In this document: positions 2,181-64,000 of the stretch, one piece after another
Numbering within the stretch: position 1 is the stretch's first letter
Layout of the letters: each line of letters starts with the position of its first letter
Source of the DNA: a virus
Lineage: Duplodnaviria; Caudoviricetes
DNA length: 64,000 bases
Reading direction: 5' to 3' (one strand)
Virus record (IMG/VR): IMGVR_UViG_3300029305_003510
Location: 32,001 to 96,000 of that record
The notes under the pieces: model-generated
Told to the model about the DNA's origin: nothing
What the model saw: the letters and a program-made list of their open reading frames with translations, nothing else
The model's database searches: none
Position numbers and translations under genes: made by a program

Positions 2181-3353
2181 TTACTTATTGCCCTTGAAAC
2201 CAGCAAACTTGGTCAGGACATTCATGTAGTCACTGGTCATACTCTGAACCAGGCTGGTGTGCAGCTGACGAGCAGAGTTCGCAGTGGTCTCATACATAGT
2301 GGTCTGCTTCATGATCAGATCATAGTAAGCCTTATAACCCTCACGCAGAACACGAACAACCTCAGCGGGATACTTATCCTCATCCTTGATGTTCAGATCG
2401 CTGCCGATCTTCTCCAGAGCAGCCTTGTAATCAACCAGATCCTTCAGATGCTTCTCATACACCTTCTTGATAGCTTCAATAGCCTTGCCGCTATCCTTAA
2501 CAGCATTCAGCATCTTACCAGCATCGCCACCGACCTTAGTCTCAACCTTCTCGGCACCACGAGCCTTCTTAGTGACCTCAGCCCAGATAACATCGACGGA
2601 AGAAGCGCTGCCAACACCGAAGATACCAGAAGCAGTCTTAGCGAAGTTCTTCTCGAAATCTTCGCGCTCCTTCTTAAACTCACCGGCCAGCTTATCTTCA
2701 TCAGCGACATAGGACTTCACGCCCTCAGAATCAGCATCAGTGGGATTCTTCTTAGTACCCTTAAACTCAGCAGCACCAGCGATCATATTCTTACCGAAAT
2801 CGCTGATACCCTTAGCCTTCTTATCGCCCTGCTGAACAACCTCACGCCAGTCATCAACCAGCTTACCAACATTGGCAGCCAGCTCACCATTAGCACCGAG
2901 ATAGTCAGGATTCCAGCGATAGCACTCAACGGAGAAATCGCTGTAACCGGGCTGACGCTGAGCAGCCTGAATCTTGGGCTCCATGATCTTGACCCACTTA
3001 TCGGTCTTACCGGTCATCTTATAGAAGTAGGCCTTGATCTTCTCGATGATACCCTTGACCATAGAAATGATCTTATTGAAGAACTTGATTACGCCTTCCT
3101 TAATGGTGGTGAACACATTCTCATGCAGAGTGTCAACACGATCAGGAGCGGTCATAGCAGCTTCGGCCAGGAGCTCATCAGTAGAAACGATGATCTCACG
3201 CATATCAGCAGCCTCGGACATGATACGATAGTTCATGTCGGCGGTGCATTCATTCAGATTGTCGGTGCCAAATTCATACGCCGCAATGGGACTATGAGCA
3301 GCACCAGCGCTTTCCACAAGGGCCTGTGCCAGGCCAAAGGGAGTAATAGCCAT
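2181..3353 (-). CDS. Putative internal head (inner-body-like) virion protein
   Basis: 390 aa, strong codon bias (AAG/CTG). Acidic N-terminus with repeated LVE/LNE/MSE/LAE/LHE motifs, then an amphipathic helix IKEGVIKFFNKIISMVKGIIEKIK typical of jumbo-phage head protein paralogs. Confidence 0.65.
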   Translation of the reverse strand: MAITPFGLAQALVESAGAAHSPIAAYEFGTDNLNECTADMNYRIMSEAADMREIIVSTDELLAEAAMTAPDRVDTLHENVFTTIKEGVIKFFNKIISMVKGIIEKIKAYFYKMTGKTDKWVKIMEPKIQAAQRQPGYSDFSVECYRWNPDYLGANGELAANVGKLVDDWREVVQQGDKKAKGISDFGKNMIAGAAEFKGTKKNPTDADSEGVKSYVADEDKLAGEFKKEREDFEKNFAKTASGIFGVGSASSVDVIWAEVTKKARGAEKVETKVGGDAGKMLNAVKDSGKAIEAIKKVYEKHLKDLVDYKAALEKIGSDLNIKDEDKYPAEVVRVLREGYKAYYDLIMKQTTMYETTANSARQLHTSLVQSMTSDYMNVLTKFAGFKGNK

Positions 3354-58383: not shown

Positions 58384-59456
58384 TTCGGTGTGTAAATTTA
58401 CATTATTTCATTTTGATTAATGTAATATTTATATAATGTGGTGCCGCCATATAGGAAACTTATGGTGGAAACTCCGTAAACCTGTGATCCGCAGGGTGTG
58501 AAGATAACGAATAGTTACATCAGGAAATGGGTGTTTAATATCTTTGCTAACCGGGAACTGCAAGTGTGACGACTTGTTAATCCGGTGCCACGTTCAAATT
58601 TATTTATACCATCACATTCATATTCTATAGGAAAGGAGGGTGCATTATGAGCAAAGTTCAGGTTAATACATTATGGTCATTGGAAAACATAAAAGACCAA
58701 TACATATTTGATACTGAAACTCTTGATATTACAAATATATGGAGTGGCAGAATTATTTCTGTGTATATAGATAAACGTGGATATCCTGCTGTATCTATGA
58801 GTTTGAAAAATCCAACAAAAACTGGCAGAAGATATGCTAATGTAAAATATCATAAAATTATTGCATTAGCATGTATAAACAATGGTCCATATAAGCTCAT
58901 TGAACATCTTGATGATAATCCATTAAACTTTCATCCGAGCAATCTTAAGTTTTCAACTCAAACCGAAAATGCAAAAACTATGCGTGCAAATGGAATCAAT
59001 AATCATATTGATTCAATCTTTGAGTTGATGCTAACAGATGGAACGAAGTATATTGGAACAACAAAAGAGATTTCAGAGCAAAGCGGTATTCGCAGAGGCG
59101 CCATATATGATAAGATGTATCAGCGATATGATAAATCTCATACAAGGACTCAGCGAAAATATAATATACAACACGTTAAACTTCTCTATTCTGGGAATGA
59201 GCGGAGGAACGCTACAAAGAAAGAAAAGGTGCTACGGGAAAGGGATAGTGATGGGTTCCTTATCCTACATAGAATTAATAATTTGAACAGGTTCAGAGAC
59301 TAACGAAAGGATAGCCGGCGCATAAGGTTTGAGTCTTATCAACTCTTAACGGCGAGTAACCGAGTAGTGTTAGCTCCGAGATGGATACGGGAGCGAAAAT
59401 GGAGGGCCCTAACTAGGTGAAGCTAGAGGGCTGAGATATAGTCCGTTGGCCCGACG
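58384..59456 (+). mobile_element. Group I intron in nrdD carrying an HNH homing endonuclease
   Basis: P1 ATGCAT|TTCG-GTGTGT with U.G at the splice site; R element TCAGAGACTA, S element AGATATAGTCC (P7 GACTA/TAGTC); terminal G; splicing restores NDMH|GGQS. Confidence 0.9.
58647..59303 (+). CDS. Intron-encoded HNH homing endonuclease with C-terminal RDSDGFLILHRI tag
   Basis: GY..V.L, HKIIA, EH.DDN.LN...SNL...T..EN. Confidence 0.85.
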   Translation: MSKVQVNTLWSLENIKDQYIFDTETLDITNIWSGRIISVYIDKRGYPAVSMSLKNPTKTGRRYANVKYHKIIALACINNGPYKLIEHLDDNPLNFHPSNLKFSTQTENAKTMRANGINNHIDSIFELMLTDGTKYIGTTKEISEQSGIRRGAIYDKMYQRYDKSHTRTQRKYNIQHVKLLYSGNERRNATKKEKVLRERDSDGFLILHRINNLNRFRD

Positions 59457-61151
59457 GGTGGGCAATCTATACCAAACTTTGAATACGGTCTTGCAATCGG
59501 TGTGCATAAAAGTTTTCGCAAGGCTATTATTCAGAAAATTCTTGATTATCTCAATATCATTGCAGGCATTGAGTATCAGTCTTTGAAGACTGAAATTAAA
59601 GCCAGTGTTGATCACTACATTGCTAATGGTGTCAAGCTGAATGAGTATGTTGCGGAAGAAAACATGTCCAAGGATCCTTCTAGGATTATAGCAATCTCTG
59701 ATATTATTCGCAATTATACCAATACGGATATTAGTTTTGATACGGCTAGCAATATTCTTAAAAGTGCAATTCGGACTGTTGTTGATGAAACACATCAGGC
59801 CACTGAAGCTGTTATCCATAATCTTAACAGTATGCATTCTCGTGCTGGCGCACAGGTACCATTTTCTTCTTTGAACTATGGCACGGATACCACAGATGCT
59901 GGTAGACTTGTTATTAGAGAAACTTTGAATGCTGTAAATGAAGGTCTCGGTAACGGTGAAACGGCAATCTTCCCCATCTCTATTTTCCGAGTAAAAGATG
60001 GAATCAATTTTAAACCCGGGGATCCTAATTACGATCTCTATAGATATTCTATGGAGGTTACTGCTAAGAGACTATTCCCGAATTATGAGTTTCTTGATGC
60101 ACCGTTCAATCTGCAGTATTATGTAGAAGGTAAACCTGAAACATACGTTGCTACGATGGGATGTAGGACTCGTGTTATGGGCAATATCAACGGTCCTGAG
60201 ATCTCTCATGGTCGTGGTAATCTGTCTTTTACAACCATCAACCTTCCCCGTCTTGCGATCAAGGCTGAAAAGAATATTGATAAATTCTTTGATGAGCTTG
60301 CTCATATGCTTCAGCTCGTCGAAGAACAGTTATATTTAAGATATAAATACCAGAGTACAAAGAAAGTTCTTAATTTCCCATTCCTTATGGGTGAGAGTCT
60401 TTGGTTGGATTCTGATAAACTTGAATACAATGATAGCGTGAAGGAAGTTCTCAAGCATGGCACATTAAGTATTGGGTTTATCGGCCTCGCCGAGGCTCTG
60501 GTAGCTTTGATTGGTAAGCATCATGGTGAGTCCAAAGAAGCTCAAGAACTCGGTCTTAAGATCATTGGGTTTATGCGCAAGTGGTGTGATGATGCAAGTC
60601 AGAGACATTACTTAAACTACAGTCTTCTGCAAACCCCGGCCGAAGGGCTTTCTGGAAGATTTACTCGTCTTGATAGAAAACGCTATGGCATTATTCCCGG
60701 TGTAACTGATAGAGAATACTATACTAATTCGAGTCATGTACCCGTTTACTATGAGATTAATGCTTTTGATAAGATTGCTATCGAAGCGCCATATCATGCT
60801 CTGTGTAATGCAGGACATATTGCATATATCGAGATGGATGGAGATCCCAGTAAGAATGTCGATGCAATCGAGCAGATTCTTGCCCATATGAAGAATTGTG
60901 GTATCGGATATGGATCTATCAACCATCCTGTCGACTATGATCCTGTCTGTGGTTACACTGGTATCATTGATGATGTATGCCCTCGCTGTGGTAGACGCGA
61001 AGGTGAACCTGTGGCAGTAGATAAGCTTCGTCATCTGGGTGTGTGGAAGCATCATGCAGCGGATCCGATTGCATATCGTCCGGATCCCAACGAGGAAGCT
61101 GATAAAATTCCAAATATTTTCGTATACACACCGAAGAAGGAGAATGAATGA
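59457..61151 (+). CDS. nrdD: NrdD exon 2; ends after the CxxC Zn site and lacks the glycyl-radical loop
   Basis: GGQSIPNF, HNLNSMHSRAGAQVPFSS, IFPI, MGCRT, GRGNL..TTINLP, TPAEGL, YYTNS, C..CG..CP.CG. Confidence 0.93.
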   Translation, partial: GGQSIPNFEYGLAIGVHKSFRKAIIQKILDYLNIIAGIEYQSLKTEIKASVDHYIANGVKLNEYVAEENMSKDPSRIIAISDIIRNYTNTDISFDTASNILKSAIRTVVDETHQATEAVIHNLNSMHSRAGAQVPFSSLNYGTDTTDAGRLVIRETLNAVNEGLGNGETAIFPISIFRVKDGINFKPGDPNYDLYRYSMEVTAKRLFPNYEFLDAPFNLQYYVEGKPETYVATMGCRTRVMGNINGPEISHGRGNLSFTTINLPRLAIKAEKNIDKFFDELAHMLQLVEEQLYLRYKYQSTKKVLNFPFLMGESLWLDSDKLEYNDSVKEVLKHGTLSIGFIGLAEALVALIGKHHGESKEAQELGLKIIGFMRKWCDDASQRHYLNYSLLQTPAEGLSGRFTRLDRKRYGIIPGVTDREYYTNSSHVPVYYEINAFDKIAIEAPYHALCNAGHIAYIEMDGDPSKNVDAIEQILAHMKNCGIGYGSINHPVDYDPVCGYTGIIDDVCPRCGRREGEPVAVDKLRHLGVWKHHAADPIAYRPDPNEEADKIPNIFVYTPKKENE

Positions 61152-61706: not shown

Positions 61707-62884
61707 ATGAAGACTTTTGTAAGAAATGGTATTGAAATGGTTGGCGAAGGAGTTCGCTTTGATCGTATCAGGCGTGTTACCGGTTGACCTACCAAATAGG
61801 CCGGTGCCCATGGTGACATGGGGCAATAAAATCCATTAAACTGTCGGGGACGATCCTTAGAGCTCTGAATACTAAGTATATGCAGTGATGTATATATGGC
61901 AAAGTGTAACGGCTTTGGTATAGTAACAACGTCAGAGATTGGACAATCCGCAGCGAAACCTCTGTTTATTTCAGAGGGACGTTCAACGATTATAATATGG
62001 AGAGTTTAGCTATGAGTAAAAAACCAGAAATAAAACCTACTGATAATGAAATTGAATATGTTACAGAATGGTATGGTATAAAGAAGGCTGCAGAAATTGC
62101 GGATGATCTTGAAATCTCTGTGAATCGTGTATATAATATTTGCAGATTTATAGGATTTAAACATTTAAATCGCAATTTCCTAATAATGTATGATCAGGAG
62201 CAAATTATCCTCGGTGGAATTCTCGGTGATGGTAATATTAAACGCAATGGTAGTAATTATTACTATCGAGAATCTCATTCCGAAAAAGAGAAAGAATACT
62301 GCTACTGGAAATTTAAGATGCTAGAAAACTTGGCGTCTAAACGAGGGTTCGGTATTTCCGATAAACGTGATGGACAATATGGTTTTCAAACAATAAACTC
62401 ACCAGCATTTAAGAAATATAAGAAAATGTCTAAAAGTGAGGTTATTGATAACTTAGATATACTAGGGGCTTTGGTATATTTTCTCGATGATGGATGGATG
62501 AAATCTACCGGGTTTTGTTTGTCTACAGGCATACTCGATGAAAATGAGCGTGAATTATTAAAGGCCAAACTTGATAAACTATTTAGAATCGATTGTCACC
62601 TTATTGGCAATGAGACTTTATCAGTAACAAAGAAAGATATTATTAAGTTAATTAAAGCGTTTAAGAAGTATATCCCTCATAACATTGATGTATACAGGAA
62701 GAAAGTGCAGCCGCTCATAGATAAATTTAAGGTATAATCTAATCCTCCCAGAAATGGAAGGCAGCCAATGTATCTGGTAGGCACATTGGATCGTTTTAAT
62801 GATGCGAAGCGTGCTGAAGAACATGATCGCGTGAAGCATTCTGTTGGCATGCCGCTTAAGTTACAGGTAGGTGAAAGTGCGTGA
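61707..62884 (+). CDS. Stand-alone NrdD glycyl-radical peptide (63 aa), spliced: exon 1 61707-61784, exon 2 62771-62884
   Basis: Spliced product MKTFVRNGIEMVGEGVRFDRIRRVTG|YLVGTLDRFNDAKRAEEHDRVKH... contains the NrdD R.xGYL radical motif; AAGGAG SD. Confidence 0.88.
61785..62770 (+). mobile_element. Group I intron carrying a LAGLIDADG homing endonuclease
   Basis: P1 ACCGGT/GCCGGT with U.G; P10 CCTACCA/TGGTAGG; Q AATCCGCAGC; R TCAACGATTA, S AAGGTATAATC; terminal G. Confidence 0.9.
61997..62737 (+). CDS. Intron-encoded LAGLIDADG homing endonuclease with N-terminal HTH-like region
   Basis: IILGGILGDG, H...K.Y..WK, ALVYFLDDG. Confidence 0.88.
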   Translation: MESLAMSKKPEIKPTDNEIEYVTEWYGIKKAAEIADDLEISVNRVYNICRFIGFKHLNRNFLIMYDQEQIILGGILGDGNIKRNGSNYYYRESHSEKEKEYCYWKFKMLENLASKRGFGISDKRDGQYGFQTINSPAFKKYKKMSKSEVIDNLDILGALVYFLDDGWMKSTGFCLSTGILDENERELLKAKLDKLFRIDCHLIGNETLSVTKKDIIKLIKAFKKYIPHNIDVYRKKVQPLIDKFKV

Positions 62885-63384
62885 ATGGTGCCGCTATTGA
62901 GGAACGTATCTGGGTCGTTCACAATGGCGCTACAACCACTACTACGCTAAGAGATCTTTATGCAGCTTATGTTGCCGGTCGACTGGGGGAATACCGCATT
63001 TATTATGTGGACCCTCAGTCGATCGAAGACTCTCGAAAAGATGATATGAAGAAACCTCTTGTTGGTACAATGAGTATTCTTGAAGTAATCAATAATGGGA
63101 TTCATCAGAAAGTGGTTGTTACGTCGGAGGATGATCTCACTGTTACAATGGGAGCAACTGGGACGTTGCTCGATTATGCTGACTGGGAGCCTACGCATCT
63201 TACTGTGAATTTTGCTCCGAATACGAAACATTTCGTTTCAGCACTGAGTGGAATTGGTGGGGCTCCTGGGGATAAGATCTTTATTCGCAAGATTAAGTCT
63301 TATCGAATGACAGGATCTTGTAATGTCGTTACATTACCAACACCCAATATGATTTCAGTGAACGGCTTTGTGGTTATGTGTTAA
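62881..63384 (+). CDS. Stand-alone degenerate Hint/intein-like domain protein
   Basis: Intein-like block spacing (IWVVHNG...LRDL; RIYYVD; VINNG...VVVTSEDD; KIKSY..TG..V..L..PN...NGFVV) but no catalytic Cys1, TxxH or His-Asn. Confidence 0.45.
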   Translation: MNGAAIEERIWVVHNGATTTTTLRDLYAAYVAGRLGEYRIYYVDPQSIEDSRKDDMKKPLVGTMSILEVINNGIHQKVVVTSEDDLTVTMGATGTLLDYADWEPTHLTVNFAPNTKHFVSALSGIGGAPGDKIFIRKIKSYRMTGSCNVVTLPTPNMISVNGFVVMC

Positions 63385-63416
63385 TTATTAATTGATTAAT
63401 ACTATAACTAATTTAT

Positions 63417-64000
63417 AAGCTCGAAGTTGCTAGCGGGCTATTGAGGTACGATTCGGTTGGGCTGCCCTGGCGGGGTGATATGTGGAATCATCCTGCCCTC
63501 GTGCGTGCATGTGGCGGCCCGTTGTGCCTTGCCATTTTAGGCGTCCGGTGATAGCGGGGAATTCACTCGGCGCTAATTCCAGCTCAGTACAGTCGTAGTG
63601 TCAACGCTGTATGGTCAGATTAGCGACACGCCGATAATAAGGTCTGGCTTTAGGCGGCTAATCATTGAATGTATACCAGAACCGAGCGCAGGATATAAAA
63701 TAAGAAATCCGGTAACAATGCTACAGGACAAGTAGTATGCGCCGATAGGACTCTATGAGCGAGAGTCCTAGTTACTGGTCTATTTGAGGATTGAGAGTCG
63801 AGAACTACATTGAGGCGAAACTGGGATCTTTTATTAATCCTGCTTAACTGTGGTATTTGGGCCAACGAATACGCGCTGGCAAGTCCTCGGTAAATTACGT
63901 CGGGATATATCAGATCTGACGGATGCGGTGTGGTAATGGCAGAGCTATTGTTCTAGGCCGTTATGTAAATGTGTCTCGACTCTCTTTCCTCGGTAGTATT
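63417..64000 (+). ncRNA. Candidate large structured ncRNA (>580 nt, continues beyond the window)
   Basis: ORF-poor and GC-rich. Helices 63459-63466/63513-63520, 63469-63479/63487-63497, 63746-63754/63762-63770, 63793-63803/63974-63984. Promoter variant AACTAATTTATA at 63406-63417. Confidence 0.55.

Follow-up and report, generated by a model that had tools for sequence, protein, structure and literature searches.

A large structured RNA between two conserved genes downstream of the RNR locus of uncultured jumbo phages, probably a stand-alone non-coding RNA gene of an uncatalogued family

Downstream of its RNR genes the phage studied here carries a long, GC-rich interval in which no gene is called, and the question is whether this interval is an RNA gene, the leader of the next gene, some form of intron or simply a spacer. 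The original prediction, made from the letters of the window, saw here a large, highly structured non-coding RNA cut off by the window edge; the window is the whole 64,000-nucleotide stretch of DNA that was analysed, bases 32001-96000 of a 230,855-bp virus record of 41.4% G+C and ~89% completeness. The 10 kb spanning the window end were taken as locus L002, in which a position equals the window position minus 60999. On the plus strand, nrdG is followed by a 986-nt group I intron with a LAGLIDADG ORF, a 167-aa ORF (the Hint-like gene), the gene-free interval and a 266-aa ORF (the coiled-coil gene). The interval between the two ORFs is 921 nt long and was left uncalled by gene callers in every copy. 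In L002 the ORF-free sequence ends at a terminator, a 15-bp hairpin followed by ATTTTATTTT (L002 3234-3266, ~window 64233-64265), which is present on the plus strand only and whose T-run reaches ~L002 3275. The feature is therefore real but truncated in the window, as had been suspected: the element runs from window position 63419 to ~64274, ~860 nt, with ~274 nt beyond the edge and its first two thirds inside, and it is single copy in its own genome.

Metagenomic contigs with homologues were retrieved by looking up exact copies of the two flanking proteins and of proteins related to them. In 11 of 11 lineages sampled the Hint-like and coiled-coil genes have 436-1109 nt of non-coding sequence between them, irrespective of whether nrdG, a class II RNR or other genes precede this group, and the RNA always lies between the Hint-fold and the coiled-coil gene. 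Copies in L003, L006 and L007 are identical to the element of this genome, those in L004/L005 have 95% identity over the 5' 373 nt, L010 is 82-94% identical and L008 ~65% identical overall, with blocks of 70-85%. L050 has the core in common with it (nhmmer E 5e-5; covariance model E 8e-7). More distant are L019, L049, L015, L179/L180, L014 and perhaps L020, which score E 0.07-1.8 with the core model, below significance, and rest on synteny and motif order, whereas L016/L022 and L021 have the syntenic gap (516-654 nt) without recognisable similarity. Seven of the sampled lineages have the same core and the common ordered motifs AAAUCC, CUGGUC, GAGGCG and GGAUGYGG; in the distant ones the order reads TATAA box, AAAUCC(R)G, CUGGUC, GAGGCG, GGAUGYGG, GUGUA(A/G), U/G-rich block and terminator. 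Full-length close homologues number only three, with L050 in addition for the core. With nhmmer, a profile of three sequences reached L050 (E 5e-5) and a short stretch of L014 only, and the distant lineages stayed at E about 0.1-2 with a core model rebuilt to include L050 (R2).

Searches of larger collections suggest a narrow distribution. The whole element gave no match by blastn ('distant') against 50,697 phage records, nor did 23 nt of the invariant 3' block in an exact scan of IMG/VR; single-protein searches of IMG/VR with both flanking proteins retrieved no related locus, and alignment-based scans retrieved only one locus each in IMG/VR and the JGI metagenomes. The core model R2 likewise had no match at E <= 1 in the genome of phage RaK2. 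The RNA family seems to be confined to this clade of uncultured jumbo phages. Two motif scans produced candidates that were rejected. The 26 IMG/VR matches to GGATGYGGTGTGG..GCAGA are regarded as chance because none of the 26 has an nhmmer match, and so are the single IMG/VR match and the >120 GTDB matches to a three-part core motif, since none scores beyond E 0.02 with R2 and the best ones lie in high-GC bacterial DNA.

The stretch is non-coding. The plus strand of 63385-64000 is ORF-poor, as first described, with no ORF of at least 60 aa; its sole ORF, of 45 aa, is read in a different frame in L008, where 0 of 135 aligned columns share the codon phase. Substitutions are spread evenly across codon positions (20/15/22) in the region where all three close homologues have some ORF, alignment indels are of all lengths and conservation is blocky. 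No RT ORF is found in the interval. Beyond the window edge, a 71-aa ORF at L002 3085-3300 was rejected as a gene, its start being deleted in L010 and L008 having no ATG and a 2-nt insertion.

The features of the locus, together with the helices named below (Pb to Pm), are as follows.

62881-63384 (L002 1882-2385), plus strand: 167-aa ORF
63385-63418, plus strand: AT-rich spacer that borders the conserved 5' block on its upstream side and contains a promoter-like TATAAG box (63414-63419)
63419-63445, plus strand: conserved 5' block GCUCGAAGUUGCU and 5' strand of long-range helix Pb (63435-63445)
63469-63499, plus strand: hairpin of block GAUAUGUGGAAUC, with the loop AUGUGGA unchanged among this genome, L004, L010 and L008 and a different stem in L008
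63527-63634, plus strand: 5'-domain helices Pc and Pd and hairpin Pe; one- and two-sided changes keep the pairs in this genome, L004, L010 and L008
63527-63536/63550-63559, plus strand: Pc
63567-63579/63618-63634, plus strand: Pd
63582-63596/63604-63615, plus strand: hairpin Pe, block AGCUCAGU
63641-63647/63676-63683, plus strand: helix Pf, 3 of 7 pairs changed on both sides
63682-63693, plus strand: conserved single-stranded block CCGAGCGCAGGA, kept in L050
63705-63782, plus strand: core three-way junction, AAAUCC, Pg enclosing Ph and Pi, then CUGGUCU
63709-63716/63771-63778, plus strand: Pg, of different sequence among this genome, L008, L050, L019, L015, L049 and L179
63718-63738, plus strand: hairpin Ph, loop GACAAG
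63746-63770, plus strand: hairpin Pi
63784-63811, plus strand: 5' strand of long-range helix Pj, including GAGAGTCGAGA at 63793-63803
63812-63967, plus strand: multi-branched interior of the Pj domain, with GAGGCGAAA (63812-63820), the CUUUUAUU loop, GGAUGCGGUGUGG and hairpin Pl
63933-63964, plus strand: hairpin Pl, GUAAUGGCAGAGC/GUUCUAGGCCGUUAU
63968-64000, plus strand: 3' strand of Pj (63968-63993; TCTCGACTCTC at 63974-63984) and first bases of a U-rich tract
L002 3001-3015: U-rich linker
L002 3035-3075: local three-way junction with GUGAUAGUUUCG
L002 3158-3181: hairpin Pm
L002 3195-3226: 32-nt block GCACUUCCUUGAGUAUGGUAUGUUUGCUUGUG, invariant in three homologues and the most conserved sequence of the element
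L002 3307-4107, plus strand: 266-aa ORF

At its 5' end the element is set off from its surroundings by composition, and the abrupt switch that had drawn attention to the region was found again: in 200-nt windows the GC content goes from 0.37-0.405 (63200-63499) to 0.535 (63400-63599), with a genome mean of 0.414. The further reading of the boundary as an AR9-like late promoter, AACT-N6-TA, is not supported by comparison, as the AAC varies among relatives and only a TATAA(G/T/A) box in the AT-rich spacer is kept. Such a box stands in the spacer just before the conserved 5' block in 9 of the 11 lineages read, and the variants TATAGC and TATAGT occur in L014 and L016. Both AAC-N6-TA and TATAAG-type motifs are ~2-3-fold enriched in the intergenic DNA of the genome, an enrichment that AT-richness alone may give. 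We infer that the box acts as a promoter.

The best-supported helix of the element is the long-range pairing Pj, since its position is kept with unrelated sequences and the neighbouring junction covaries. The 11-bp pairing GAGAGTCGAGA/TCTCGACTCTC that the original prediction had pointed out (63793-63803 / 63974-63984) holds, and in a repeat search it grows to arms of 18 nt, 89% complementary and separated by 170 nt. In this genome the pairing beats 97 of 100 shuffles. When the CUGGUC anchor is fixed, the best stem starting within 25 nt of it beats 96-100% of shuffles in this genome, L008, L050, L014 and L015, and the position of Pj after the anchor is kept in these and in L179, although the paired sequences are unrelated:

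Pj, this genome: GAGAGUCGAGA/UCUCGACUCUC
Pj, L008: UCGAAGAUAGAGGG/UCCUCUGUCUUCGG
Pj, L050: GUGGGUGAGAAG/CUUCUCACCCAC
Pj, L014: CCCAUGAUAAAG/CUUUAUCAUGGG
Pj, L015: GCUCCGGUGCAG/CUGCAUUGGAGC
Pj, L179, by inspection: CCAACCCGGAUAUG/CGUAUUCGGGUUGG

The junction preceding Pj behaves in the same way. In the covariance-model alignment of the core, 10 of 24 pairs are changed on both sides, as compared with 4.9 +/- 1.4 in shuffles (0/500 reaching the observed number) and 1-3 in slid controls, and 90.7% of cells are paired as compared with 78.3% in shuffles; the covariance model (R1/R2) recovers L050 at E 8e-7. Independent single-sequence folds of the core from this genome, L010, L008, L050 and L015 give one architecture, in which AAAUCC is followed by Pg enclosing two or more hairpins, then CUGGUC, then Pj, which closes an extensive branched domain; the final hairpin of this domain directly adjoins the 3' strand of Pj. 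Within this domain the interior helices (consensus-fold helices 17-21) carry changes on both sides, and GAGGCG and GGAUGYGG recur in L019, L049, L015, L179 and L014. In L014 (3163-3570) a GNAT acetyltransferase gene is inserted between the Hint-like gene and a much reduced version of the RNA (~330 nt, 31% GC), in which the Ph hairpin loop, CUGGUC, the long helix and GGAUGUGGUGUGG are still present.

For the element as a whole we used RNAalifold on the alignment of this genome, L010 and L008 and kept helices of at least 4 bp, which gave 224 pairs in 26 helices, with the frequent G.U pairs that had been described for the window. In this consensus fold 39 of the 224 pairs are changed on both sides, against 14.8 +/- 2.8 in shuffles (0/500) and 3-8 when partners were slid by 1-3 columns, and standard pairs make up 92.1% of cells (86.9 +/- 0.6 in shuffles). 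Measured against column-shuffled alignments, the alignment-fold z-score is −6.0 for the plus strand and −7.1 for the minus strand; in folding energy the plus strand has an advantage of 60 kcal/mol, which is expected if the G.U pairs belong to it. All of these figures are biased upward, as the fold was computed from the very three sequences on which it was then scored. Other measures are weaker. The single-sequence fold has a modest z-score of −3.0, a second subfamily alignment reaches only −2.65, and when all 921 nt are folded by plain MFE, the predicted pairs persist in L008 no more often than by chance (68 of 158, 65 expected). Close variants (L004 and this genome, L022 and L016) are uninformative, with kept and broken pairs equal in number.

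Outside the core, the 5' strand of Pb finds its partner at L002 3058-3067, beyond the window, forming 10 pairs of which 6 are changed on both sides between this genome and L008. The AGCUCAGU hairpin recurs in L179 with compensating changes, and for the GAUAUGUGGAAUC hairpin RNAalifold offers an alternative, a long-range pairing with GUGAUAGUUUCG. A predicted pairing of 63419-63431 with the invariant 3' block would close the RNA from end to end; this helix is hypothetical, because it never varies and its duplex energies fail to beat shuffles. A U-rich tract follows the 3' strand of Pj in this genome, L010, L008, L014 and L050. In L002 the 15-mer TTTTATTT(C/T)ATCAAT forms a direct repeat, once after the 3' strand of Pj (3001-3015) and once after the terminator (3268-3282); the tract after Pj may be an internal termination or processing site, and a shorter form of ~630 nt is therefore possible.

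We compared the element with known RNA families by cmscan against Rfam 15 (4227 families). There was no match at gathering thresholds in the window, none at E <= 10 in 63000-64000, none at E <= 1 either in the element in L002 or in the homologous gaps of ten relatives. This holds for the models of GOLLD, which has a conserved 3' domain with pseudoknots, ROOL, OLE, RNase P, tmRNA and the group I and II introns and also for SRP RNA and 6S. Group I introns are recognised by a catalytic core (P3-P9) and by intron-less alleles of their host gene, group II introns by a domain V hairpin with the catalytic triad, often along with an RT ORF; with the group II models (RF00029 for domain V-VI, RF02001 and related ones) the E <= 10 search of 63000-64000 and the E <= 1 search of L002 were both negative. 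ARAGORN found no tRNA or tmRNA in L002 2300-3400. The region has consequently not turned out to be the 5' part of a group II intron or a member of another known family. Of the earlier suggestion that it belongs to a GOLLD/ROOL-type class or to a new one, the second part is supported by the extension, the homologues and the covariation, and the first is not, for want of any Rfam match.

GOLLD (RF01998) and ROOL (RF03087) resemble the element in some respects: they too are phage-encoded, several hundred to >800 nt long and multi-domain, with long-range helices and without a known partner or function. In GOLLD one part is universally conserved and another less so, both RNAs are often found near tRNA islands in phages and prophages, and both form RNA-only cages, homo-oligomeric assemblies having been seen by cryo-EM for these RNAs and for OLE (PMC12286853). 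The element differs from them in that no tRNA gene lies in the 1.1 kb scanned around it, its conserved motifs are others, its synteny is another (Hint-like gene, RNA, coiled-coil gene) and no model matches at E <= 10. Because every model-based test failed, the likeness is one of kind and not of membership. With OLE RNA (RF01071) the element has in common that it is a large, highly structured non-coding RNA defined by covariation. OLE, a bacterial RNA that long lacked a clear mechanism, is encoded in the chromosomes of extremophilic Firmicutes and acts together with the OapA/B/C proteins, whereas the present element is phage-borne, has different neighbours and has no Rfam match. Group I introns (RF00028), of which there are two in the same locus, are structured RNAs of similar size and are likewise found in the RNR neighbourhood, but the element has no exons to join, is present in all relatives, has its own terminator and has no model match, while the genuine intron 1.6 kb upstream scores 21 bits with RF00028.

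The neighbouring proteins give no hint of the function of the RNA. The 167-aa protein has a Hint (intein) fold, predicted with a pLDDT of 92, that Foldseek matches to the RadA and DnaB mini-inteins (E 1e-7, TM ~0.7). It is free-standing, lacks Cys1 and the terminal His-Asn and has a variable C-terminus, and it is probably not splicing-active. The 266-aa protein is predicted to fold into a 120-residue coiled coil and a small alpha/beta domain, and this fold has no significant structural match in the PDB; profile searches with both neighbours against PDB sequences also gave nothing significant. The central motif of the Hint protein recurs as a 27-fold repeat in a 3284-aa protein (P0016), and in L020 the Hint-like gene follows a class II RNR. 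Downstream of the 266-aa gene, between it and convergent minus-strand genes, a perfect 13-14-bp GC-rich hairpin with T-runs on both strands (L002 4089-4120) is likely a bidirectional terminator.

Some observations concern the RNR locus itself. After nrdG, a mini-gene of 63-64 aa encodes ...GEGVRFDRIRRVTGYLVGTLDRFNDAKR..., a glycyl-radical motif of NrdD type (window 61707-61784 and 62771-62881, L002 708-785 and 1772-1882; L008 3783-3974; L014 2306-2500). The large NrdD ORF ends after its Zn-ribbon (CGYTG..CPRCG) and lacks this motif, so that a small gene of its own, downstream of the activase, seems to encode the glycyl-radical domain. The mini-gene, whose stop is overlapped by the 167-aa ORF by 4 nt, is split exactly at RRVTG|YLVG by the 986-nt group I intron (window 61785-62770, L002 786-1771). 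This intron has weak RF00028 matches (21 bits), carries a LAGLIDADG endonuclease ORF at L002 998-1738 and is absent from L008 and L014. The nrdD gene is interrupted as well, at window ~58500-59500, where 243 aa, a 218-aa ORF and 549 aa stand in place of the one continuous 797-aa ORF of L008; this is a second, optional intron with an endonuclease-like ORF.

A non-coding stretch of conserved position with a covarying secondary-structure core, a terminator and no known-family match could also be a giant cis-acting 5' leader of the coiled-coil gene, which senses a signal or binds a factor and whose terminal hairpin is an attenuator controlling read-through. We regard this as the main rival because the terminator, whose place directly ahead of the next gene is conserved, sits 25-45 nt before the downstream start codon; in most lineages the spacing of ~25-45 nt leaves room for a ribosome-binding site and hardly for a promoter, and no promoter is obvious in it. 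A leader would also agree with the RNA remaining beside the coiled-coil gene even in L014, with its acetyltransferase gene inserted upstream of the RNA, and with the greatest conservation falling shortly ahead of the terminator, in a block of 32 nt that does not vary among three homologues. However, known leaders and riboswitches are several times shorter than ~860 nt, and by inspection we saw no conserved antiterminator pairing with the terminator stem; one candidate, CUACAG in hairpin Ph of this genome, is absent from L008. Moreover, L014 has an extended −10-like TGGTATAAT between terminator and gene, so that the downstream gene can have its own promoter there. A leader of this kind appears unlikely to us.

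The two other explanations are less probable still. A non-functional spacer, or an element acting at the level of DNA (origin, packaging or recombination site) whose RNA structure is incidental, would account for the L016 and L021 gaps without detectable similarity, for the modest single-sequence fold z-score (−3.0) and for the strong z-score of the minus strand (−7.1), which is what any helix-rich DNA would show. Yet compensatory changes preserve helices of otherwise unrelated sequence in six lineages, the G.U pairs and a terminator oriented one way only indicate that a single strand is transcribed, and conserved unpaired motifs hold their order over large divergence, and we consider such a reading improbable. 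A remnant or atypical variant of a mobile element, either a self-splicing one (a group I or II intron without an ORF) or one of another kind, comes to mind because this genome has two introns that encode homing endonucleases in the 4 kb upstream, and the Rfam group I model detects a real intron so weakly (21 bits) that a divergent one could be missed. Against this, there is no host gene to splice, the flanking ORFs being complete, separate and conserved, each with its own start and stop; the gap is found in every relative without an empty site, whereas the two real introns are absent from L008; and the element has its own terminator and no group I or II match at E <= 10. An intron is the least probable of these explanations and can be given very little weight.

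The evidence is best explained by a stand-alone gene for a structured non-coding RNA of ~860 nt, representing an uncatalogued family that is single-copy in a clade of uncultured jumbo phages, and we put the probability of this at roughly 70%. Transcription of such a gene would start just after the conserved TATAA(G/T) box in the AT-rich spacer and would stop at the strong intrinsic terminator, presumably independently of the downstream gene. The transcript would fold into several domains, beginning with a variable 5' domain and continuing with the conserved core, in which the three-way junction (AAAUCC-Pg-Ph-Pi-CUGGUC) would lead directly into Pj clamping a multi-branched domain of ~190 nt; a 3' domain with the almost invariant U/G-rich block would complete it. 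Since its modular make-up (a conserved core with a replaceable periphery), its size and its higher G+C resemble those of GOLLD and ROOL, a trans-acting scaffold is the most likely mode of action, and we propose that the RNA would be a stable one, RNA-only or protein-bound, made during infection.

More speculatively, the stand-alone RNA may belong to a new 'ornate' phage RNA class with an activity of its own, either a cage-like self-assembly or the core of a ribozyme or RNP together with the adjacent Hint-fold and coiled-coil proteins, an idea that we offer as tentative. If it were true, function would centre on the junction-plus-clamp core, and the outer domains, which can be swapped, would serve as decoration specific to each lineage. 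To our knowledge, very few natural RNAs of such size have conserved, intricate folds, and rRNA, RNase P, group I and II introns, OLE, GOLLD and ROOL have each revealed new biochemistry or, recently, RNA-only cages. The present element adds to them a family from uncultured jumbo phages with a covariation-supported core, open to synthesis and direct study.
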